Source of the DNA: an uncultured virus (IMG/VR IMGVR_UViG_3300010233_000001)
Taxonomy: Duplodnaviria > Heunggongvirae > Uroviricota > Caudoviricetes
DNA length: 64,000 nt
Direction: 5' to 3' (one strand)
IMG/VR virus record: IMGVR_UViG_3300010233_000001
The notes under the pieces are model-generated. The model was not told where the DNA came from, did not search any database, and saw nothing but the letters and a program-made list of their open reading frames with translations. Below are positions 547 to 61,399 of the stretch, in pieces (the first letter of the stretch is position 1; every line of letters starts with the position of its first letter). The translations under genes were made by a program, and so were the position numbers.

Positions 547-1497
547 TTATCGAATACGGCGGCCCCAATAGTCTCTTTTGGGAGGATTGGGATAAGTGGG
601 AGAATCTTCCAATACCTTGGTCTGATACCAGGAAGGAAGAGTATTCCAGTACTGAGCTTCTTTTTCGTTGAGTTTACGGTCTTGTCGGAGAGTCGGGGTA
701 CCAGTATCAACCCACTTGGCGACACGTTCTACTTCAATGGGAGCACCTTTGTGATCAAGGACTTTGACTCCGTTGCTATCCAGTTTGTAGATGACTTCGT
801 AAGCCAGGTATTGGAAGCGAACCTTCACTTCACTATCATAGTAGAGACCGCCCTTAGAATAACCCCAGTAGGTCTTCCAGGCTTTAGCATAACCACCACG
901 CTTTTTGTTCTTATCGGCGGGAGTAAACCAGAAAAGCTTATTGCCCACTTTGCCAACGATGCGGCCGTTCAGCCAGTTACCAAGTTGCTTGGTATCGATA
1001 GCCGGGACTTTTTCTTTCTTCCAAGGACTTTCAAGAACGGTCTTCTCACGAAGAATACCATCGTCATCCACATAGAACTCGTACTCACGATAAGAGGTGG
1101 TGAACTCATCAGGGCGGTTTCGGCTGGCTAATAAGCTGTATGTCAAATCAGGAGTTACCTCTACCGACTTGAGAAGGTGGTCGAAGGTAATGTGGCGTCC
1201 CGCCGTGGTGCGAGTATCGAACTTCTCGAAAACTTCAGAACGAACCTCAGCCCAAGGACGACCAGCTTGTTTACGAAGCCAGCGGTACATTGGACGAAGC
1301 TTGTCTGTAAAGCCTTGATAGACGGGCTCAATCGGCTCCACATCCTCTTCGTAAGCCACTTCCAAGTCTTTCATGACATCGGCCAGATAGTTTTTGAGTT
1401 TGGCTCGAACATCAGCGTGGGAGTGGCGGCGATCCCATTTATTGGAGTTGTGGCGCCCGCCTTCGATGACCGTTCGTTGCAATCTTTTTGTGGACAT
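547..1497 (-). CDS. Hypothetical phage protein, 316 aa
   Basis: Long ORF with a GGAG RBS and no recognised motif. Confidence 0.7.
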   Translation of the reverse strand: MSTKRLQRTVIEGGRHNSNKWDRRHSHADVRAKLKNYLADVMKDLEVAYEEDVEPIEPVYQGFTDKLRPMYRWLRKQAGRPWAEVRSEVFEKFDTRTTAGRHITFDHLLKSVEVTPDLTYSLLASRNRPDEFTTSYREYEFYVDDDGILREKTVLESPWKKEKVPAIDTKQLGNWLNGRIVGKVGNKLFWFTPADKNKKRGGYAKAWKTYWGYSKGGLYYDSEVKVRFQYLAYEVIYKLDSNGVKVLDHKGAPIEVERVAKWVDTGTPTLRQDRKLNEKEAQYWNTLPSWYQTKVLEDSPTYPNPPKRDYWGRRIR

Positions 1498-1517: not shown

Positions 1518-1958
1518 TTATTGAAAGACTAAAATAGTTTTTATTCTATTAAGAATCTTATCTCTAGTAGTTTTAGAAAACTCAAAAAGCTTTTTGTCGA
1601 AACTAAAAGCTGGCTGTAAATCTTTGGGGACTTGATTAATCTTCTTATCGATAACTCTGTTTTCAGCATCTACATCGTAGACATTGATAGATGTTACAGG
1701 ATAAAGATTGGGATAATTATGCTGCATGATTACATATTTATGACGCCCTTCATAAATACTAACAGTCTCTTTTTCAATCCTAACGGTAGGATACCAGAGG
1801 TCATTGTTGGTCAACTGAACTCTGTAATGCTCTAAATCATTAGCACAACAATAATTGTATCCTCGATACAATTTAGAGTTGAACAAATCAATTTGTCCTC
1901 CACAGAGAGGGCATCGAAGAGAGTTGAGAAGGGCTTTTACTAGTGGGTCCAATGACAA
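1518..1958 (-). CDS. Hypothetical protein with an N-terminal CxxC
   Basis: ORF track, CPLC...CC. Confidence 0.6.
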   Translation of the reverse strand: MSLDPLVKALLNSLRCPLCGGQIDLFNSKLYRGYNYCCANDLEHYRVQLTNNDLWYPTVRIEKETVSIYEGRHKYVIMQHNYPNLYPVTSINVYDVDAENRVIDKKINQVPKDLQPAFSFDKKLFEFSKTTRDKILNRIKTILVFQ

Positions 1959-2060: not shown

Positions 2061-2163
2061 TTGCAGATGCAGGATTCGAACGCTGCGACCTCCAGGGTAT
2101 CTTTGCTGGCGTCAAAGACGCTTGCACTGAACCTGGCGAGCTACCGGGCTGCTCCAATCTGCT
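2061..2163 (-). tRNA. tRNA-Met(CAT), initiator-like, with a 28-nt insertion in the anticodon
   Basis: AGCAGAT/ATCTGCA acceptor with 1:72 mismatch, D-arm GAGCAGCCCGGTAGCTC, stem CCAGG/CCTGG, loop TTCA[28 nt]TAC, T-loop TTCGAAT. Confidence 0.75.
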
Positions 2164-2166
2164 ATA

Positions 2167-2217
2167 TGGTTGGGGATAAGGGAATTGAACCCCTATTCAC
2201 GGCTTCAGAGACCGCCG
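2167..2217 (-). tRNA. tRNA-Gln(CTG), 3' part; 5' end lost in the gap
   Basis: GCGGT-CTCTGAA-GCCGT anticodon arm, T-arm and CCA. Confidence 0.75.
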
Positions 2218-2228
2218 NNNNNNNNNNA

Positions 2229-2286
2229 ATTGAACCCCTGCCTGATGGGTCAGAACCATCCGTACTGGCCGTTGTACTAATCCCCA
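2229..2286 (-). tRNA. tRNA-Gln(CTG), 5' part; 3' end lost in the gap
   Basis: TGGGGAT start, GATGG-TTCTGAC-CCATC anticodon arm. Confidence 0.75.
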
Positions 2287-2307: not shown

Positions 2308-3048
2308 TTATGCAGCGTTTTTCTTTTGCCAATGATGACGGGGCGGTAATGCAAGTCCGTAGCCTTTTGCCCATTTCCTTACAGCATTATCAGATACTTC
2401 AAAATATTCAGCAAGTTGTGTAGCTGGCTTTTCCCAAATGAGTTGTCCCAATACTTCTTTAGTGGGTCTTTCTACCTTTCTGGTAGCGGGGCGAGGACTG
2501 TTTCTCCAATCTGGGTTAATTTGAGAGGGGCTTGGTGGGCTATCTTTTTTATGTCTGCGCCCGCCAAATGTATCAGTTTGACTATGACAATGAGGACAAA
2601 GTATTCTGAGATTTTCAATCCTGTTATCGTTGCAAACTCCATTGATATGATCAATCTGAAGAGATAACGGTTTACCATTCCATTCGGGCAATTGACCGCA
2701 GATAGCACACTTGTTTTCCAATAGCCCTTCTTTTATGAGGCGCTTTTTCAGATTACTTCTGTTAAGAGTAGAATCTATCACCAGAATGTCTTCTAAGGGA
2801 GAAGATTTTCGTGAAGAACGTTTCCCCTTATTATGACCGAGCCCAAGAGCAATGTGCGAATAATCTATCCCATCAAATTGTAATCGGGCCTTCAAACTCA
2901 CATACGATGCACTACGATTATCTAATCCAAATGACATTAGAACTTGGTTAAGGGAGGTGGCATTTTTAACTGTTGCCTCTAACGCGATTTTTTCGATGCG
3001 CCAAACGGCACTTCTTTTACGACGAGGCTTGATGGTAGGGCCACTCAT
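2308..3048 (-). CDS. HNH homing endonuclease between tRNA-Gln genes
   Basis: CAICG...LQIDHING...NRIENLRILCPHCHSQT with a C-terminal HTH-like segment. Confidence 0.9.
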   Translation of the reverse strand: MSGPTIKPRRKRSAVWRIEKIALEATVKNATSLNQVLMSFGLDNRSASYVSLKARLQFDGIDYSHIALGLGHNKGKRSSRKSSPLEDILVIDSTLNRSNLKKRLIKEGLLENKCAICGQLPEWNGKPLSLQIDHINGVCNDNRIENLRILCPHCHSQTDTFGGRRHKKDSPPSPSQINPDWRNSPRPATRKVERPTKEVLGQLIWEKPATQLAEYFEVSDNAVRKWAKGYGLALPPRHHWQKKNAA

Positions 3049-13518: not shown

Positions 13519-13530
13519 ATGAAAACTAAG

Positions 13531-13629
13531 TGCCCCAAGTGGGATTTGAACCCACGACCTTCCCTCCCGGGACGCTCTACCTGAGTTCCAAATTACATAT
13601 GATATTGGATCTCGCTGAGCTATTGGAGC
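13531..13629 (-). ncRNA. Anticodon-less tRNA mimic with a 31-nt D-loop hairpin
   Basis: Intact acceptor, D stem and T arm; anticodon arm is TCCC-GGGA-GGGA. Confidence 0.65.
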
Positions 13630-13656
13630 TGCAAGAGGTAATTACTCCCTTGCATT

Positions 13657-13731
13657 TGGTGCCGTCAGTAGGACTTGATACCTACGCCTTCAACCCTGCA
13701 CGGGTTGCTGTTCTCCTTGAACTACAACGAC
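13657..13731 (-). ncRNA. Atypical tRNA-like RNA
   Basis: GTCGTTG/TGACGGC-A-CCA, CAACC-CGTGCAG-GGTTG, 8-nt T-loop TATCAAGT. Confidence 0.5.
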
Positions 13732-14193: not shown

Positions 14194-14269
14194 TGGTCAG
14201 AGCGACACGATTTGAACGTGCATCGATCGGGTCCAGACCGATTGATCTACCAGGTTGAACTACGCTCTG
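14194..14269 (-). tRNA. tRNA-Pro(TGG); its 5' end overlaps the stop codon of the upstream nuclease ORF
   Basis: CAGAGCG/CGCTCTG-A-CCA, ATCGG-TCTGGAC-CCGAT. Confidence 0.8.
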
Positions 14270-15174
14270 ATTAGAAACTTACTTATCGATTCAATTATCT
14301 CTTCCCTAAACTCTTTCGTTATTTTCTTCCATTTAATCCTTAGAACCTGCCACCCGGCTGCCACCAGATACTGATCTTTCTTCTCATCCGATAGTTTGCG
14401 ATCTGGTAATTCATGCTGCCTGCCGTCTATTTCTAGGGCTAACTTTCTACTTGGATCGGCAAAATCTATGAACCACTTCCCAATTTTCAACTCTCGTTCC
14501 ATCGTAATGTTCAGCTCTTGCAGTAAGGTGATGACATATTTTTCTGCATATGAGGGCTCTAATTTGATTCGTGTAGGCCATCCCTTATGGGCACCAGAGG
14601 CTATTCTAGATTGCATTGCAACTGACAGTTTCTTTCTTGTTTCTGGGTTTTCTGCTCTCAGCTGCGCTGCACAGGACATAGAACAACACATTGTTGTGCT
14701 CTTAACACTATGAAACATCTTTGCGCATTTTTGACAAGTCAGCCTGAATAAGACATCACCATCGATCAAATCTGATATGGCAGACGAGCTATAAAACTCT
14801 ATGAGAGAGTGTGAAGCTTTCAATCTTTGATCTGGACTATGCTTCTTAGCAGCAAAGAAGATATTAGAACAGCTAGAAGAGCAGGTTGCGCTTTCTTTTA
14901 AATGACCTTGTTTGGTCTCAAACTTCTTCCCACATACGGGACAAATCTTTTCGATAATTGGATATTTACGGCGGGCCTTAACCTTCTTGCTCGGATCGAA
15001 ATGATCGATTGATATTCCATTATTCTGGACTAACTCAGTAATCTTCTTACTGACTTTGCCGTTGAAATAAGTATATCCTAATCGATTAGCAAGTTCAGTT
15101 TTATCAAAACATTCGAGTACAATTTTTTGTAAATCTTCTTTCGAAAATTTCTTGAGATTAAGTTTTACCTTCAT
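14260..15174 (-). CDS. Zn-finger plus Vsr/DUF559-like endonuclease (probable homing endonuclease)
   Basis: Two CxxC...CSxxC modules and C-terminal FIDFA...LALEIDGRQH...KDQYL...GWQVLRI. Confidence 0.85.
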   Translation of the reverse strand: MKVKLNLKKFSKEDLQKIVLECFDKTELANRLGYTYFNGKVSKKITELVQNNGISIDHFDPSKKVKARRKYPIIEKICPVCGKKFETKQGHLKESATCSSSCSNIFFAAKKHSPDQRLKASHSLIEFYSSSAISDLIDGDVLFRLTCQKCAKMFHSVKSTTMCCSMSCAAQLRAENPETRKKLSVAMQSRIASGAHKGWPTRIKLEPSYAEKYVITLLQELNITMERELKIGKWFIDFADPSRKLALEIDGRQHELPDRKLSDEKKDQYLVAAGWQVLRIKWKKITKEFREEIIESISKFLIRA

Positions 15175-15192
15175 ATCTTTCTATATATCAGA

Positions 15193-15329
15193 TGGTCGGT
15201 GATAGAGGATTCGAACCTCTGATCTTCTGTACTAGCACGAATTAAAATATTTCAACTTTCACTCGTGTAAAAGGAACATTACTGTTCCAAGCCAAAACAG
15301 ACGCGATAGCCAGGCTTCGCTAATTGCCG
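15193..15329 (-). tRNA. tRNA-Pro(TGG) with a 59-nt insertion at 36/37
   Basis: TCTGT-TT-TGG-[15233-15291]-GT-ACAGA, perfect T-arm, CCA, two acceptor mismatches. Confidence 0.7.
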
Positions 15330-21952: not shown

Positions 21953-24178
21953 ATGACCTATTTACCAAACTTACTAAAAAAGATCGATAATTTCTGTAGC
22001 CTGACTGATCGTTTGGAAACAATGGCTCAGGATTATAGTAGCGGCTATTCCTCACCAGACGAACCTGAAGAAGAATCGGTAGACGAAGAAGGCGATAATC
22101 CACCCCATTATGATGAGTTGATGAATCTATCTCGTCAGGTAGACGATCCAGAACTTTCTCAGCAACTACAGACATTGGCTGAGCTATATAGATATGCCAT
22201 TCAGTTGGGTGGTGGTTATTCTACTATCGCAATGGCGATCAATAACTTGAAGACCATGTATGGTGACGGTTCTGATTCTGATATTGAAGATACTCTCAAT
22301 GGTATGATTAGAGAGCTGGCTAAAGCTGCTGGTGGCATCAAGGCTCTTTCTGGCAAAGACAATCCATCTTTCGTTCAGAGGCTTGTCCAGTTGAAACAAG
22401 ACATTGAAGCTCGTAATCAAGAGGAGCGCTCAGGGGCCTTGGATGCTTACCAAGAAGAAATTAGTGGTAAAGGTTCCGGGGCTCAGACTGATGAGACCTC
22501 ACAAGAACTTGCAGAGGCTGGTCTCACACCGGAGCAAGCTGATATTGTCAATCCAGCTGCTTTAGGATTTGCTGACAAAGAAGACCCAAAGACTAACAAA
22601 GGGTGGCATACGACTGGTAGTGGCAAAGCTTACAAAAATTGGAAAGAGTATTACAACAATGAGCGCGTTTCTTACGAAGCCGACTTAGTCGATGAAACTG
22701 ACCCTGACATTCGACAGACTCTTGAACAACTCATCAAATTATTGCCAACTATTTCTGATACTACTCAACAGGCCCTTGATCTATCTAATGCCCTTAGAAG
22801 TGATGTAGACAAACCTGAAGAGCAGGCTCGTGTGCGAGGCGCTCTTGATGAGAGCAATGCTCAATTACAGAGGCTTAAGTATGTTCGTCGTGGTCTTAGA
22901 AATAGAATCCGCAATATTCAGCTACAGAAAGAAAAACAAAAAATCTCTAGCGAATTGCAAGATGCTTCTCAAAAATATGAAACATCTGCCGACCCAGAAA
23001 GAAAAGAAAAATTCAGAAGAGAAACAGAGGCCCTCAAACAAAAATTGGCCCTCAATGAATTATCTCAAAGCACAGATGTTTACAAAGCTAAAGAAAGAAA
23101 CTATCGTTTAGAAATGCTTCGTCAAATGTCTGGTGGCGCTTTTCCAGCTAAAGATTGGATTGAGAAGCAACAACAAAAAATTGATGCTGCGGCTAAACAA
23201 CGTAAAAGTAAGGTTGCTTATGACAGAGAACAGTCTGTACTACGAGGTCAAGAACACGGCAAGATTGGTCCAGTTCCTGAAAGACAGAAAGGTAGACGAG
23301 GTGGTGGTAGAGCTGATGAAAAACTCAACCAATACAACATCGAGAAGGCTACTTTCGGAGGTTTGCTTGACAAGTTAGGCGAGAAGATTGGTACCGCGGC
23401 CCACGTGGCTCGTCTCAATGTTACTCAGGAAAAGAATAAGTTACATAACTCTCTCAAACCATTGGTAGAGATTATTGGCAAAACTATTCAGAATTCCAAC
23501 AAGATAAAAGATAAGCTAAGAACTGAAAACAATCCAGCTTCTAGAGATAGGCTCAATCAGTTGTGGACTACTGAGAATAAAGCTAAATACGATGCCATCA
23601 GAAATCTGAAAGCTCAAATGAAAGAGTGGGCTGCTCGCGCTGTAGCTATCAAAGCTTTAGAGAGAAATGTTCGATGGCTCCCACACTTCAAGAAAAACCA
23701 ACTTGATTTAGAGTCAATTGCAGGGTGGAAGACTGATCAGGGTTGGCAGCTTGATGGAGATAAGGCAACCAGAGTTGCCGAAATCATCAACAACTCTACC
23801 AGATTGTTAGATCGATATGACCGCACTTATGGTGATGTAGCTAGAAAAGCAATCACTCCAGGTGCGCCAATGCCTCTTGAAATCTCTTTTGATAGCGCCG
23901 TTCAATACATGAAGACGGTCATTGCTGTGCTATGTAAAGAGACGGGCATCTATCCTAATAGCGCTGAAGCTTCTTTTGATTTGGATTCTGGTTCTAACAA
24001 AAATAGAATCAAGATTCTATCTAAGATATTAACAAGCCAACAACTTTTCAAGCTGGCACAAGAAGCTGAGACCACTGACCCAACTCAAGCCAATCAAATC
24101 GCTGAAGAAATCTTCGACAGGCTTTTTGAAGAAGTTCTCCAAGAGACTGGGCTCAAGGAAGCTTTGACAGCTCAGTGA
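21953..24178 (+). CDS. Large coiled-coil hypothetical protein, 741 aa
   Basis: Long ORF rich in charged helical sequence, counter-oriented to its neighbours. Confidence 0.7.
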   Translation: MTYLPNLLKKIDNFCSLTDRLETMAQDYSSGYSSPDEPEEESVDEEGDNPPHYDELMNLSRQVDDPELSQQLQTLAELYRYAIQLGGGYSTIAMAINNLKTMYGDGSDSDIEDTLNGMIRELAKAAGGIKALSGKDNPSFVQRLVQLKQDIEARNQEERSGALDAYQEEISGKGSGAQTDETSQELAEAGLTPEQADIVNPAALGFADKEDPKTNKGWHTTGSGKAYKNWKEYYNNERVSYEADLVDETDPDIRQTLEQLIKLLPTISDTTQQALDLSNALRSDVDKPEEQARVRGALDESNAQLQRLKYVRRGLRNRIRNIQLQKEKQKISSELQDASQKYETSADPERKEKFRRETEALKQKLALNELSQSTDVYKAKERNYRLEMLRQMSGGAFPAKDWIEKQQQKIDAAAKQRKSKVAYDREQSVLRGQEHGKIGPVPERQKGRRGGGRADEKLNQYNIEKATFGGLLDKLGEKIGTAAHVARLNVTQEKNKLHNSLKPLVEIIGKTIQNSNKIKDKLRTENNPASRDRLNQLWTTENKAKYDAIRNLKAQMKEWAARAVAIKALERNVRWLPHFKKNQLDLESIAGWKTDQGWQLDGDKATRVAEIINNSTRLLDRYDRTYGDVARKAITPGAPMPLEISFDSAVQYMKTVIAVLCKETGIYPNSAEASFDLDSGSNKNRIKILSKILTSQQLFKLAQEAETTDPTQANQIAEEIFDRLFEEVLQETGLKEALTAQ

Positions 24179-29331: not shown

Positions 29332-30325
29332 CTTATTCTCCTAAACGTTTATATGGCTTGTGAAATGATATTGTTATCAAACAATACTTGACGAAATTCT
29401 TCGGTAGTTAGGTCTCGACCATTAACTTCTTGCCATGCGTAAACTGCCGTGGCAACATTGGGAATTTCTGAACCCATGTAATGTAAGCGTACTTCTATCT
29501 CGGCCACTGTATTTCGACCCTGTGGTAACTCTTCAGAATATAAGTGAACTTCCTGTCCCAAAACTTTAAACGTTACACAGTCTCGACGTACAATCATTAT
29601 ATATCCTGAGCTATTTGTTTAGAAGGAAAAGTCATAGTATTTATCACGTTTCCCAATGTAAACTGGCGTTTTACTATTAGTAATACGCCAGCTATTGTCC
29701 TTACGTAAAGAGGCCGTATGGATAGTTCCTTGAGGATCGATCTGAAAAATATAATCCTGGGATTCAGACATTCCATTATTATCTATTCTAGATGCAATAT
29801 CCTCTTGAAATGTAATTCTCTTACCAGAACTAGAAATATCTATGATAGTTCCAGGAAATCTATCTGATCCAATTGCCAAAGTTACGCCCATTCCAATTTC
29901 AGGTCTAGGGCTAAATACATTCAACATCTTCTTCATCTTTTTGAATCTCTATTTTTTCCATATAATCTTTATCGGCGCACTCAGAAGAACAGAAAAAACT
30001 CTCTGTAAACTGATGTGTATGGATATTTTCTTCTAAAACTTTAATACACCAAGAACATTTAGGAAGTGACTGATACTCTTGCTGGGCCCATTTTTCGGCT
30101 TGTTGTGGTGATAAAACTTGGTTATCAATCAGAATGCGAACCTTCTTGATACCAGACTCTTTCCACAATCTCCGCTCTTTACAGGCGGCGTTGACCGCTC
30201 GATAGGGCGTCGGATGTGACCCATTCAAGGTACGTTCGATAGTTACAACGGAACCATAGTTAGGGTGAGAAAATCGATTCACACTATACATTTTATTGAT
30301 GCCCCACCTTAATATTGAAGGCTTG

Positions 30326-30438
30326 TGCTAGGAGCAGGAGTTGAACCTGCACGGTATGTTGAGGTGCATCTCAACTCCCAAGGATAAACTAACAAGCACG
30401 TTAGTTTATCCTCGCGTATACCACTCCGCCATCCCAGC
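30326..30438 (-). ncRNA. tRNA-Leu-like RNA with a 13-bp anticodon stem and enlarged variable arm
   Basis: GCTGGGA/TCCTAGC-A, D-arm GGCGGAGTGGTATACGC, AGGATAAACTAAC/GTTAGTTTATCCT. Confidence 0.65.
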
Positions 30439-31137: not shown

Positions 31138-32268
31138 TTATAGCGTCTTATTTCTGATTTCAGTGGAACTGATGTCCCATTCTCCCTTGATCGGGAGCAT
31201 AATGATACGAGCCGAAGCCCATACGTTGAAGGGATGATTAGCTTTTATGTCATCGAGAATGTTTTCACAGGTAGTGAAAACACCATTGACCTCTCGACCT
31301 ACGATGAAGAGCTTAGTTCCCATCTCATAGAAGCTTCCGAGCATCTCTTTGACGTCCAAACCCCACTTAGGATCCAACATACGGACCATAGCATCAGCAC
31401 CAAGGACCAACGGCATCTTAGGGAAGGCGCGAGCCTTGTCGATGTAGAAGGGCTCCTTCTGAGTGAAGATACGATCACGACCCTGAAGTAGCTTGGCACG
31501 CTGCAAAAGCTGCTGAACAGTCAGTGCATTCTTGTGCGGGGGCTCGGCCGTTACCTCAAAGAGCACACTCTTGTGGAAGGCATACTGCACCTCTTCCGCA
31601 ATTCCAAAGTGCCCTTCATGCGGCGGGTTGTAAGCACCCGGCATCAGAGCATACAGCTCATTAGTGCCCCTCGGATTGGGGACTTCAGCGAATCTTTTAC
31701 CATTGGCAGCGAAGAAAGGACGAGCAAAGAATCGTTCCTTAGCAAACTCCGTAGCGTCCTGATACTCTTGCAGAGGTGGGCCACTATCATCTACCGGAAA
31801 AGCAGAGATACCAAGAGCGTCCAGCATCATATAGAAAGCAGAATCGTTGCAAGCATCACCATCTGAGTGGCGTGCTACCTGTCCAAGTCCTTTGAGCAAA
31901 ACCTTCTCGAAGGTCAAGACTTTTTCATCTGTTATGATGCAGATATCAAAGCGATGCTCACCCCTATGAATCCTTTCAGAGGCCACAGAGGCGGTCAAAC
32001 CGATACCAACAGGCTTCTTCCCACCGAACTTATAGGCCTTCATGTAAGCTGCGCTGGCCAAGTCTACAGCCGCTTCTCGGCTGACAAAATGTTCTGGCAT
32101 GAACCCCAACAGCTCTTCTTGTTCAGATTGATCGTAAGGGAAAGAGGAGCCCGAAAGGTAGGCTGAGGAGCCTGGAACACCCCACAATTCATTCTGAATG
32201 CCCGCTCCGCCACCAGTAGCGATGACGTGGATATTGACACCAAGTTCTTTTAATTTGTCAGACCACAT
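31138..32268 (-). CDS. CinA-like plus HxGH nucleotidyltransferase (NMN/NaMN adenylyltransferase-like) fusion
   Basis: ATGGGA...VPGSSAY...VSREAAVDLA; PGAYNPPHEGH; LGADA; ISSTEIR. Confidence 0.8.
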   Translation of the reverse strand: MWSDKLKELGVNIHVIATGGGAGIQNELWGVPGSSAYLSGSSFPYDQSEQEELLGFMPEHFVSREAAVDLASAAYMKAYKFGGKKPVGIGLTASVASERIHRGEHRFDICIITDEKVLTFEKVLLKGLGQVARHSDGDACNDSAFYMMLDALGISAFPVDDSGPPLQEYQDATEFAKERFFARPFFAANGKRFAEVPNPRGTNELYALMPGAYNPPHEGHFGIAEEVQYAFHKSVLFEVTAEPPHKNALTVQQLLQRAKLLQGRDRIFTQKEPFYIDKARAFPKMPLVLGADAMVRMLDPKWGLDVKEMLGSFYEMGTKLFIVGREVNGVFTTCENILDDIKANHPFNVWASARIIMLPIKGEWDISSTEIRNKTL

Positions 32269-42774: not shown

Positions 42775-43530
42775 TTACACAAACCCCTTCCACTTTTCAG
42801 ATTTTCGTTCCATACCATTAGGCATATCCGCCTGTATATATTCAATAAACTTGACAGCATCGCCATGTTTAGATGAATATATGTAGTATCCTTTGTTAGG
42901 ATCTTTCATACTGTTTTTTCGTGTGATTTTTAGATCGGATTGTAATTTATCATTTAGCAATCCTGCTAAAAACTCCACATCATTTTTTGTAAAACCGTCT
43001 GTATATAAAGCTAACCTAAGTAATTTTTTATTTTTACCATGATGAATGATACTGCCATCATCACAGAACCAAATCGCACAAGTAAGTGGTGATAATACTA
43101 AATCTTGAGGAACAATTTTTTCACCATTTGGATACCATTTATTTCTAAATGGAACAAAAACCTCGGCACACTGCGTTCTAAATGAACAATTGTAATAAGT
43201 TTTACCAGTTCTTTTATCGAAGGCGGATCTTGTTTTTATACCTGATGAACAAAAATCTTTGAATGCCTCAAACTCATAAGCTAAATATGATAAATCTGTT
43301 ATCTTCCTACCGAAAGCAAGCCCAACAGTAATGTGATGTTTGTAGGAATAAATAGAAGTGTCACCCAATAATCCACCTGTTAGAATTTGCTCTTGAAAAG
43401 ACGATAGGATCTTTGGCGGTTCGGGATTGAAAGACCACTCACCTTTTTTGATCTTTGCATAACGCTCTTTATCATAACAGGACTTGCATTTTTTATTCGA
43501 GCCATCACAAGAACATTTTACTTTTTTCAT
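42775..43530 (-). CDS. LAGLIDADG homing endonuclease, free-standing
   Basis: ILTGGLLGDTSI and CAIWFCDDGS, LYTDGFT; AT-rich relative to neighbours. Confidence 0.88.
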   Translation of the reverse strand: MKKVKCSCDGSNKKCKSCYDKERYAKIKKGEWSFNPEPPKILSSFQEQILTGGLLGDTSIYSYKHHITVGLAFGRKITDLSYLAYEFEAFKDFCSSGIKTRSAFDKRTGKTYYNCSFRTQCAEVFVPFRNKWYPNGEKIVPQDLVLSPLTCAIWFCDDGSIIHHGKNKKLLRLALYTDGFTKNDVEFLAGLLNDKLQSDLKITRKNSMKDPNKGYYIYSSKHGDAVKFIEYIQADMPNGMERKSEKWKGFV

Positions 43531-44264: not shown

Positions 44265-44789
44265 TCATTCGACTTCTCCGTTGAGAATTTTGAGAGCCTT
44301 CTCCACATCATCAGCGGTCAGGCCCAATTTCATTGTGGTTTTGACTAGCACTTTGGTTAGAGTCAGCATATCATCATGGTCATCCAGGATGACGAAAGAC
44401 TCTGGTTTGACCTTCAAACCATCGATATAAGTAGCAATCTCTTTGCCACGAGGGATACGAGAAGAGTTGACCTTACCATGCAGCACCGGCGTGCTGGCAG
44501 TAACTGTGAAAGTAGCTCCTCGATCCTGCATCATCTTAGTGATTTCGGTGGGAGAATACTTACTGCGCCAAGTGGAAGAGAGAACTACTTCGGCTCCCGA
44601 ACGTTTGACCAAGTCATTGAGTCGATGAAGGGCCCTGGGATCCAATAAAACATAATGATTGACCAACGTGATAAGCTGTTCGGACATATATTGAGTCTCA
44701 GACTTATACTCTGCTGAGTTACAGTAAGCATCCGAATTTAAAACTCCGTCTATATCCAAAAATATTAATTTTAGTGGCTTATCAGACAT
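44265..44789 (-). CDS. HAD domain of the Swiss-army-knife RNA-repair type (HAD_SAK_2-like)
   Basis: IFLDIDGVLN...VVLSSTWR...RGKEI...FVILDD. Confidence 0.85.
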   Translation of the reverse strand: MSDKPLKLIFLDIDGVLNSDAYCNSAEYKSETQYMSEQLITLVNHYVLLDPRALHRLNDLVKRSGAEVVLSSTWRSKYSPTEITKMMQDRGATFTVTASTPVLHGKVNSSRIPRGKEIATYIDGLKVKPESFVILDDHDDMLTLTKVLVKTTMKLGLTADDVEKALKILNGEVE

Positions 44790-48319: not shown

Positions 48320-49123
48320 TTACTCATCGCCATAACCTTTGTAATAGTTTTTCTTGGCTTTGACCTGAACGATATCTACTGAATACGTGGTAGAATTAGC
48401 AGCCTCATCGTCAGATAAGGTAGTCGATCCATTGAGAAAAGCTGCGGTTAGATGACCACCAAAACAACAGCCAGTATCAATGCCGATACAGCTCACACCA
48501 TCTTTGATGGTCTGCCTGATTTCTTTCAGATGGTGGACACAATGTCCATAAATTATGGACTCGGGCCCCTTCCACAATTGATCCCAATAAACGGTTCCCT
48601 CGGGCTGAGAAAGATCGTGATTTAGCGATTGGGCAATACCATCAGCATTGACATATCTGACCCTCATAATCTGCTTAGGATCCTGCTTTTCCAAGCTATA
48701 ACGAGGCTCGCAACCAGCATGAACTGCCCACCACTGATCAACTAGATGTATCTTGACCGGTAGATTCTTTAGGAACGTCCAGTCTTGATCGTTGAGAGCT
48801 TCGTTGGCAGCAGCTGCCTCAGGAGCTAAGTGCCTCATAGGGTTAGCCTTACCAGTCTCCAGGCGCTTCTTCTCGTGCTTATGCCACCTTATGTGTTTGT
48901 CCTCGTGATTGCCAAGAACACACTCTATCTTGAGTTCTCTGGCTCTGCGCACACAACCAACTGGATCTGGACCGCGATCCATTAGATCACCCAGCATAAC
49001 CAGCCTCATCTTTTCTTTGTTGTATTGAATCTTCTTGAGAAGCTCATCGAACTCCTCCAGGCAGCCGTGGATATCTCCGACGACAACTATTTGCTTTTCA
49101 CTCATTGTAACTTCCTGCTTCAA
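48320..49123 (-). CDS. Calcineurin-like metallophosphoesterase (ApaH/PrpE/Pnkp-type)
   Basis: VGDIHGC, GDLMDRGP, LGNHE, VHAG, YGH, IDTGC. Confidence 0.92.
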   Translation of the reverse strand: MKQEVTMSEKQIVVVGDIHGCLEEFDELLKKIQYNKEKMRLVMLGDLMDRGPDPVGCVRRARELKIECVLGNHEDKHIRWHKHEKKRLETGKANPMRHLAPEAAAANEALNDQDWTFLKNLPVKIHLVDQWWAVHAGCEPRYSLEKQDPKQIMRVRYVNADGIAQSLNHDLSQPEGTVYWDQLWKGPESIIYGHCVHHLKEIRQTIKDGVSCIGIDTGCCFGGHLTAAFLNGSTTLSDDEAANSTTYSVDIVQVKAKKNYYKGYGDE

Positions 49124-61087: not shown

Positions 61088-61399
61088 TCATTCTCCGCCA
61101 CCTATTTGTTGTTGTCTGATGCGCTCGATGGACTGAAGGGCTCGATTCATATACTCTACACGAGTGGCATTGGCACTATGAATGGTGACCATCGGAAGCG
61201 GGAAGGTATGATCGTTATAGATCACTTCCTCCAACCAATCGAGAACCTTATATCCTTCTTGCTGGCCTTCGCCCAGATCATTGTCCAAGCTAAGAAAAGT
61301 AACCTGCCTGGTCTTGAGAAGATCGATAGTCTCCTCAACCGTATACGTGCGTGTCCACTCACGGGGAGTCTCACGCAGGTCATCCATGTAAACTTTCAT
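61088..61399 (-). CDS. Cyclic-phosphate-processing receiver-like domain
   Basis: MKVYMDDLRETP..W...LSLDNDLG...GYKVLDWL...IHSAN. Confidence 0.8.
   Translation of the reverse strand: MKVYMDDLRETPREWTRTYTVEETIDLLKTRQVTFLSLDNDLGEGQQEGYKVLDWLEEVIYNDHTFPLPMVTIHSANATRVEYMNRALQSIERIRQQQIGGGE

Follow-up and report, generated by a model that had tools for sequence, protein, structure and literature searches.

An initiator-like tRNA-Met(CAU) gene of an uncultured Caudoviricetes phage is split within its anticodon by a 28-nt insert, which by its predicted structure is an unclassified phage tRNA intron, a hairpin of 25-28 nt fitting no known intron type. The gene is located on the minus strand at positions 2061..2163 of the window, i.e. 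the whole stretch of 64,000 nucleotides that was analysed, with A1 at 2163 and the discriminator base A73 at 2061. The explanation we favour, at a probability of roughly 0.45, is a protein-spliced mini-intron that persists as immunity to a neighbouring endonuclease.

The 5' exon (2128..2163, minus strand) holds the 5' strand of the acceptor stem, the D arm, the 5' strand of the anticodon stem and the loop bases U32, U33, C34 and A35. The 3' exon (2061..2099, minus strand) continues with U36, A37 and C38, the 3' strand of the anticodon stem and the variable loop AGGTC, followed by the T arm with a bulged C at 2082, the 3' strand of the acceptor stem and A73. The acceptor stem has 7 bp with an A1/A72 mismatch and is followed by U8, and the D arm GAGC/GCTC gives A11:U24 both in the sequence and in the ARAGORN drawing. 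The anticodon stem CCAGG/CCTGG encloses 35 bases instead of 7. Excision of 2127-2100, or of 2128-2101, leaves the loop TTCATAC between CCAGG and CCTGG, the splice junction being ambiguous by one A. A one-base bulge interrupts the 5' strand of the T stem in the window copy (GCAG-C-G / CCTGC), and such a bulged base is found in three of the five members of the family described below. The window copy has no encoded CCA, since its 3' end reads A-ACA and not A-CCA, whereas the relatives encode CCA.

Standard tRNA searches pass over this gene. ARAGORN with default settings reported 14 tRNA genes in the window without the interrupted tRNA-Met; with introns allowed, the program returned tRNA-Met(cat) at c[2060,2163] with a 28-nt intron, one base beyond A73. 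The Rfam tRNA model at its gathering threshold gave 19 matches in the window, none of them at this gene, and the gene was still without a match at E<=1 in the window and at E<=10 in the region 2030-2200. The interrupted tRNA-Met is thus outside RF00005 as defined by its covariance model, because the insert and the T-stem bulge break that model. An earlier note, made from the letters of the sequence, had described a 28-nt insert splitting the CAU anticodon with a junction ambiguity of one base, and both the intron mode of ARAGORN and the orthologues agree with this description.

Comparison with orthologous tRNAs, which the note had named as a check, identified the insert as a conserved trait of the family: the identical site is interrupted in all four orthologues (L117, L118, L119 and L138). 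These are found on contigs of 359 kb, 267 kb, 9.9 kb and 2.8 kb, comprising two large IMG/VR contigs, below called G001 (359 kb, with L117) and G002 (267 kb, with L119), a third viral contig (L118) and a metagenome contig (L138). A pattern scan with a gap of 15-45 matched three viral contigs, each carrying the insert at the same site. A looser scan of viral sequences returned 18 loci, among which only L117, L118 and L119 were tRNAs, and another scan returned the same three. Two patterns searched against prokaryote genomes gave 0 matches to the interrupted tRNA, and therefore neither a prophage copy nor a clue to the host. With blastn the tRNA had no match among GenBank phages, and no cultured relative was found.

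Further copies are present in Logan contigs from two additional studies. A soil contig (X1) covers 2060-2166 with 1 mismatch and no gap and has different flanks. A cave contig (X7, record 7) aligns without gaps over 2043-2157 and has 6 mismatches, of which the two listed are at the bulge (2082) and at a wobble-compatible stem position (2085). A second cave contig matches as far as A35 and then continues with another version of the hairpin. The insert length is 25-28 nt, always between TTCA and (G)ATAC. At least four unrelated hairpin sequences occur among the copies with pairing maintained, while the seven bases of the anticodon loop and the intronic GA that pairs with U33-C34 are invariant. 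Three JGI metagenome contigs (L139, L140 and L141) carry a different tRNA-Met-like gene with the anticodon stem CCGGG/CCCGG and a 16-nt insert after TTCA. Part of the anticodon arm recurs in this insert, which resembles a tandem duplication.

Bacterial-type tRNA-fMet is marked by the anticodon CAU, the lack of a Watson-Crick pair at 1:72, A11:U24 and G:C pairs at 29-31:39-41. The phage gene has the CAU anticodon, but only once the insert is removed. It shows the 1:72 mark as A1/A72 in the window, L118, L119 and L138 and as U1:A72 in L117, and its D stem has A11:U24. The run of three G:C pairs is represented by two of three (A29:U41, G30:C40, G31:C39), and the identical anticodon stem is used by uninterrupted phage initiator-like genes. 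The A1/A72 mismatch together with A11:U24 bears out the initiator-like identity already proposed for the gene.

As a comparison set we used 114 uninterrupted phage genes with the common context of D stem, anticodon stem and variable loop. The anticodon is CAT in 113 of these, and in 12 the loop is exactly TTCATAC. This shows the predicted excised product to be an ordinary member of the phage initiator-like tRNA group. Within G001 and G002 the remaining Met(CAT) genes are elongator-like, with a pair between positions 1 and 72, the interrupted gene being the only one of initiator type among 59 and 67 ARAGORN tRNA calls, respectively.

The insert (2100..2127 on the minus strand, or 2101-2128 in the alternative register) was characterised by folding and by counting pairs. 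Its outer helix pairs 2124-2126 with 2104-2106 and its inner helix 2117-2121 with 2109-2113 around the loop 2114-2116, while its final bases, G2101 and A2100, pair with C34 and U33 (all on the minus strand). The hairpin GCGTC-TTT-GACGC was noticed earlier and is confirmed here, with the addition of the outer TGC/GCA helix. The same arm fold is predicted in all five full sequences: anticodon stem, unpaired U32, a 2-bp helix in which the G-A at the end of the intron pairs with exon U33-C34, an A-rich internal loop that is symmetric (2x2 in two members, 3x3 in three) and a hairpin of 7-10 bp. In the predicted arm U36-A37-C38 form a 3-nt bulge.

The z-scores of the arm fold range from -1.1 to -3.2. 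In the alignment, which is a small sample of only five sequences, 94.1% of cells are paired against 25-47% with slid partners, and both-sided changes occur in 3 pairs (7 cells). None of 500 shuffles reached the observed pairing percentage or covariation score. The G-U pairs of L117 fit an RNA of the tRNA strand. Three candidate motifs were rejected when the folds were inspected: a K-turn, as the bulge is on the wrong side of GA; mimicry of an RNase P or RNase Z substrate, as the hairpin length varies and RCCA is absent; and a MazF-type ACA site, as ACA is present in just two of the five members.

It had been claimed that an intron of group I or II could not be nearly so small and that a clear bulge-helix-bulge (BHB) motif is missing, and on both points we arrive at the same result. 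The insert is an order of magnitude smaller than such introns (28 nt against at least 200 for group I), with no match to Intron_gpI or to any other Rfam family, and the last base of the 5' exon is C or A, where a group I intron would have the U of a U-G pair. In the predicted arm a symmetric internal loop and a single 3-nt bulge (UAC) accompany a 2-bp helix. A BHB cannot be drawn, because the helix between the junctions is 2 bp and not 4.

We know of no protein-spliced tRNA intron in bacteria or phages, and to our knowledge both remove tRNA introns by self-splicing only. No description of such an insert was found in a literature search, the scope of which ended before bioRxiv supplements, and a term search of PMC7162821 gave no mention of an intron, an initiator or an RNA ligase.

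The relatives carry a second feature at this locus. In G002 an ORF for a PD-(D/E)XK endonuclease of PF11645 begins 8 nt after the tRNA CCA, and across the relatives this free-standing gene starts 8-10 nt behind the CCA. The G002 protein belongs to PF11645 (E 1.3e-29 over 130 of 131 residues) and matches PDB entry 2OST, I-Ssp6803I, at E 3e-5. The gene for I-Ssp6803I lies within a 655-nt group I intron that interrupts tRNA-fMet of Synechocystis (PMC1995217, PMC3384342), and the enzyme's target is a 23-bp pseudo-palindrome (PMC3384342). A location inside the mobilised intron is a mark of that family; the phage gene is outside, behind the tRNA.

The endonuclease gene is intact in G002 and missing or decayed in the other four of the five members. 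The L118 copy is 79% identical with one in-frame TGA, only an 18-aa remnant followed by an extra tRNA-Met gene is left in G001, and a few codons are left in L138 as read from the alignment. In the window the zinc-ribbon-like ORF, the next conserved gene, comes directly after the tRNA, and the window has no match to the endonuclease, so its gene is absent there. A more distant homologue is found in the same orientation behind a tRNA-Gln gene of another phage. Regarding the decayed copies, the TGA of L118 (564-566) is aligned with a Gly codon of the G002 orthologue and either is a nonsense mutation or hints at recoding of TGA, and the extra tRNA-Met(CAT) of G001 (31792-31966), which has an odd D arm, replaces most of the endonuclease gene, of which 18 codons remain.

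As a hypothesis, the adjoining I-Ssp6803I-type gene would explain at the level of DNA why an insert is found at precisely this position. The insert is positioned at the centre of the palindromic DNA of the anticodon arm, probably the kind of site that endonucleases of this family cut, and it may have arisen, or may persist, as immunity of the phage's own tRNA gene to that nuclease. We are led to this reading because the insert splits the palindromic site and because a gene of the I-Ssp6803I type is directly behind the tRNA in relatives.

Splicing would proceed as follows. A putative endonuclease of phage or host would cut both strands across the 2-bp anticodon-intron helix. As both junctions flank this same exon-intron helix, the two scissile bonds would face each other with a 3' stagger, of 3 nt for cuts behind A35 and behind the intronic A and of 1 nt in the other register, a geometry that would suit a dimeric nuclease. 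The halves could then be healed and sealed by the T4-like tRNA-repair enzymes Pnkp and Rnl1 of the phage. The expected product is an initiator tRNA with the loop UUCAUAC, which is known without interruption in other phage initiator tRNAs. No RNA sequencing run was found to contain the region 400-2210. Against the favoured reading stand the loss or decay of the endonuclease gene in four of the five members, the T-stem bulge in three of them, the window copy's lack of an encoded CCA and the presence of just two of the three initiator-type G:C pairs.

A more specific version of this scheme, which we regard as rather unlikely in its entirety, would make the splicing the phage's own. A symmetric endonuclease would cut the 2-bp helix and Pnkp and Rnl1 would ligate. 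The hairpin would stand for the smallest version, without an ORF, of a broader class of inserts in phage tRNA genes that lack a ribozyme and are associated with homing endonucleases. It would be kept as immunity to a nuclease that cuts initiator tRNA genes without such an insert, in competitors or in the host.

The earlier note had suggested searching the rest of the genome for RtcB or Rnl ligases and a splicing endonuclease, and the outcome was divided. The T4-type enzymes were found in the large relatives: G001 and G002 encode T4-type Pnkp, and each has a T4 Rnl1-type ligase and Rnl2-type ligases. RtcB and an EndA-type splicing endonuclease were not found in G001 (83% complete) or G002 (62% complete), nor was RNase III. 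Among the conserved neighbours of the tRNA nothing was recognisable as a candidate splicing nuclease, and no RNA ligase is encoded within the 64 kb of the window.

An RNA-repair cluster of G002 contains two Pnkp genes (one of them HAD_PNKP, 1.5e-49), Rnl2, Rnl1, Rnl2 and a metallophosphoesterase, of which the window has a homologue at 48320-49123. The unassigned ORFs of this cluster had no match in NCBIfam or in a protein atlas. Besides the metallophosphoesterase, the domains associated with RNA repair in the window are HAD_SAK_2 (44265-44789, minus strand) and the cyclic-phosphate-processing receiver domain cREC_REC (61088-61399, minus strand). A CCA-adding-type enzyme is encoded in both G001 and G002. 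Pnkp and Rnl1 are common in large phages, and for this reason their presence is unspecific evidence.

It is also quite possible, though we would not put it first, that the RNA is never spliced. It would then be a tRNA-shaped RNA with an extended anticodon arm and a role other than decoding, e.g. as a decoy or partner of a host nuclease or of an initiation factor that recognises initiators, or as a regulator, and the conserved loop bases would be kept to build the 2-bp helix and the 3-nt bulge and not an anticodon. Conservation of the intronic GA and of the symmetric A-rich internal loop equals that of the exon loop bases, which fits a single functional motif, and the failure to find a splicing enzyme in G001 and G002 points in the same direction.

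Furthermore, the lineage as sampled has no uninterrupted allele, with 0 matches in IMG/VR for one with this acceptor stem. The prior of an unspliced role is raised by other tRNA-like genes of the phage without a usable anticodon, namely the one at 13531-13629 of the window, with its 36-nt D-loop insert and 4-nt 'anticodon loop', and a second one that is syntenic in all three genomes under three different isotype calls. Against this, removal of the insert recreates the exact 7-nt loop of 12 uninterrupted initiator-like tRNAs with the same stem, and the initiator identity marks are kept in the acceptor stem and D stem. G001 and G002 moreover have near-complete decoding sets, in which the interrupted gene is the only one of initiator type.

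A neutral scar, left by filler DNA from the repair of an endonuclease cut or by a small palindromic mobile element in a slowly decaying gene, is a highly improbable origin. The T-stem bulge in three of five members, the loss of the encoded CCA in the window and the decayed endonuclease gene next door would suit it, and palindromes can be maintained at the DNA level. The 5' half of the tRNA and the anticodon arm, however, are invariant or nearly so while protein identity between these phages is mostly 55-75%; the 5' exon is identical in all five members except for position 1 and changes in the D loop. The T stem of L118 and that of L138 differ by compensatory changes, so that the gene is seen to be under selection. 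Compensatory changes are found in the hairpin as well, among them G-U pairs, which can form only in RNA of the tRNA strand, and the listed differences of the cave contig are confined to the bulge and the wobble-compatible stem position. Judged by these substitution patterns, purifying selection acts on the tRNA body as a folded RNA, and the gene is neither a decaying pseudogene nor an artefact.

A different splice register was also considered. A cut after U33 and before GATAC would give the loop UUGAUAC and hence tRNA-Ile(GAU). This register likewise restores a 7-nt loop, and GATAC follows the insert in all five members. We reject it as a very faint prospect because CAT is the anticodon in 113 of the 114 uninterrupted genes that share the stem, and GAT in none; in addition, the tRNA body bears initiator marks, and tRNA-Ile(GAT) genes are already present in both G001 and G002. 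An assembly or sequencing artefact, for which one might point to a run of N at 2218-2227, 55 bases away, can be neglected, as the same interrupted gene is found in independent contigs from other collections and studies.

The phages of this clade are very large (about 270 to over 360 kb), come from soil and freshwater and have approximately 60 tRNA genes. The contig of the window is 119.6 kb long, and the window is collinear with G001 and G002 at a protein identity of mostly 55-75%. The ARAGORN sets of the two relatives (59 and 67 genes) cover all amino acids and include CTA suppressors, with two CTA (amber suppressor-type) tRNA genes in each (144353-144509 in G001 and 176544-176700 in G002); the large relatives may read TAG as a sense codon. 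In the window, many minus-strand tRNA genes are distributed among small ORFs. Endonucleases of the HNH, LAGLIDADG (42775-43530, minus strand) and DUF559 types are encoded there together with NAD/ADP-ribose enzymes, a SpoU methylase and ribosomal protein L7/L12 (51894-52274, minus strand).

The order Gln(TTG)-Gln(CTG)-interrupted Met is the same in the window, G001 and G002. One or more copies of tRNA-Gln(CTG), broken by the N run 2218-2227, occupy 2167..2286 (minus strand) and end 3 nt before tRNA-Met, which implies a shared transcript of the tRNA array. The region looks like two tandem Gln(CTG) copies collapsed across the N run, and G002 has two at this place; another N run is located at 270-373. 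Between two tRNA-Gln genes lies an HNH endonuclease gene (2308..3048, minus strand; Pfam, PHROGs).

Downstream, the conserved zinc-ribbon-like ORF (1518..1958, minus strand) was placed by tblastn synteny and in G002 follows the endonuclease gene. The synteny marker at 547..1497 (minus strand) is a conserved protein specific to the clade with 366 homologues on contigs of up to 511 kb. It has no Pfam or PHROG family; its AlphaFold model (pLDDT 79.5) matched nothing in Foldseek at E<=0.001 or in VIA above Z 5, and tblastn against GenBank phages gave only a distant match, Myxococcus phage Mx1.

ARAGORN made further 'intron' calls in the window (13530-13662, 15193-15329 and 30325-30438), which turned out on checking to be a different phenomenon. 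The tRNA-like gene at 13531-13629 (minus strand) scores 42.5 bits with the Rfam tRNA model, its D-loop insert and 4-nt loop leaving no usable anticodon, and blastn found no match to it in G001 or G002. The tRNA-like gene at 30325-30438 (minus strand) is syntenic with 1198-1314 in G001 and 22617-22734 in G002 and has good acceptor, D and T arms. Its middle is aberrant and variable, being called Ile, Phe and Ser 'with intron' by ARAGORN across the three genomes, and does not represent a simple intron.

A further arrangement at 14194-15329 (minus strand) consists of a degenerate tRNA-Pro-like copy, a DUF559 gene (14260-15174) and an intact tRNA-Pro(TGG). The degenerate copy has two acceptor mismatches, an insert of approximately 59 nt and a 5' part 86% identical to the start of the G001 tRNA-Pro. 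The arrangement suggests an endonuclease cassette by which the tRNA was duplicated or replaced.

A conserved, ribozyme-less, non-BHB intron in the anticodon of an initiator would mean either a new enzymatic route of splicing or a new class of functional RNA derived from tRNA, because bacteria and phages are otherwise known only for self-splicing. If the protein-dependent splicing that we favour were true, the insert would be categorically new, and the route would possibly use the well-known tRNA-repair enzymes of phages. The adjoining I-Ssp6803I-type nuclease would offer a concrete and inexpensive test of whether an intron can be retained because it protects against a homing endonuclease. With a substrate of only some 100 nt, both the splicing and the immunity question are accessible in vitro.

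Among the closest systems, none unites a 25-28-nt non-BHB hairpin, a site within the anticodon, an initiator tRNA and an adjacent free-standing endonuclease of the tRNA-fMet type. The protein-spliced introns of archaea and eukaryotes (BHB; EndA/Sen; RtcB or Trl1) are likewise short, structured and dependent on protein; in these too, anticodon-loop bases of the exon pair with the 3' end of the intron and the splice sites flank a short helix. The phage insert differs from them in having no 3-4-3 BHB and a central helix of 2 bp, in its site inside the anticodon (34/35 or 35/36) instead of 37/38, and in its bacterial-type phage setting, where EndA and RtcB were not found in G001 and G002.

In the restriction-repair of phage T4, tRNA is broken by the anticodon nuclease PrrC and repaired by Pnkp and Rnl1. 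The break in the anticodon loop and its healing and sealing by enzymes with homologues in G001 and G002 resemble the proposed pathway; the T4 system, however, mends one nick in a tRNA of the host, and no intron is excised. Collaborative homing, in which a free-standing endonuclease acts together with an ORF-less intron, was reportedly described by Zeng, Bonocora and Shub in 2009 for psbA of cyanophages. As in our phages, a free-standing homing endonuclease adjoins a gene whose target is split by an ORF-less intron, whereas in psbA the interrupted gene encodes a protein and its group I intron splices itself out.

Lak megaphages have 'enigmatic' introns (Devoto et al. 2019, PMC6784885), which are likewise unclassified inserts in the anticodon loops of tRNAs of huge phages and are strongly conserved from genome to genome. 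They are predicted at 23-141 nt, most of them at about 79-141, with start positions 37-41 according to tRNAscan (PMC6784885, Table S6). Tyr and Thr tRNAs are named, and the accessible part of that report gives no structure, covariation or link to an endonuclease. The group I intron of tRNA-fMet in Synechocystis PCC 6803 similarly interrupts the anticodon loop of an initiator and is tied to a PF11645 endonuclease (PMC1995217, PMC3384342). It is a 655-nt self-splicing ribozyme with a 150-aa endonuclease gene inside (PMC1995217), whereas the phage insert is a ribozyme-less hairpin of 25-28 nt whose endonuclease gene stands outside and is often lost.
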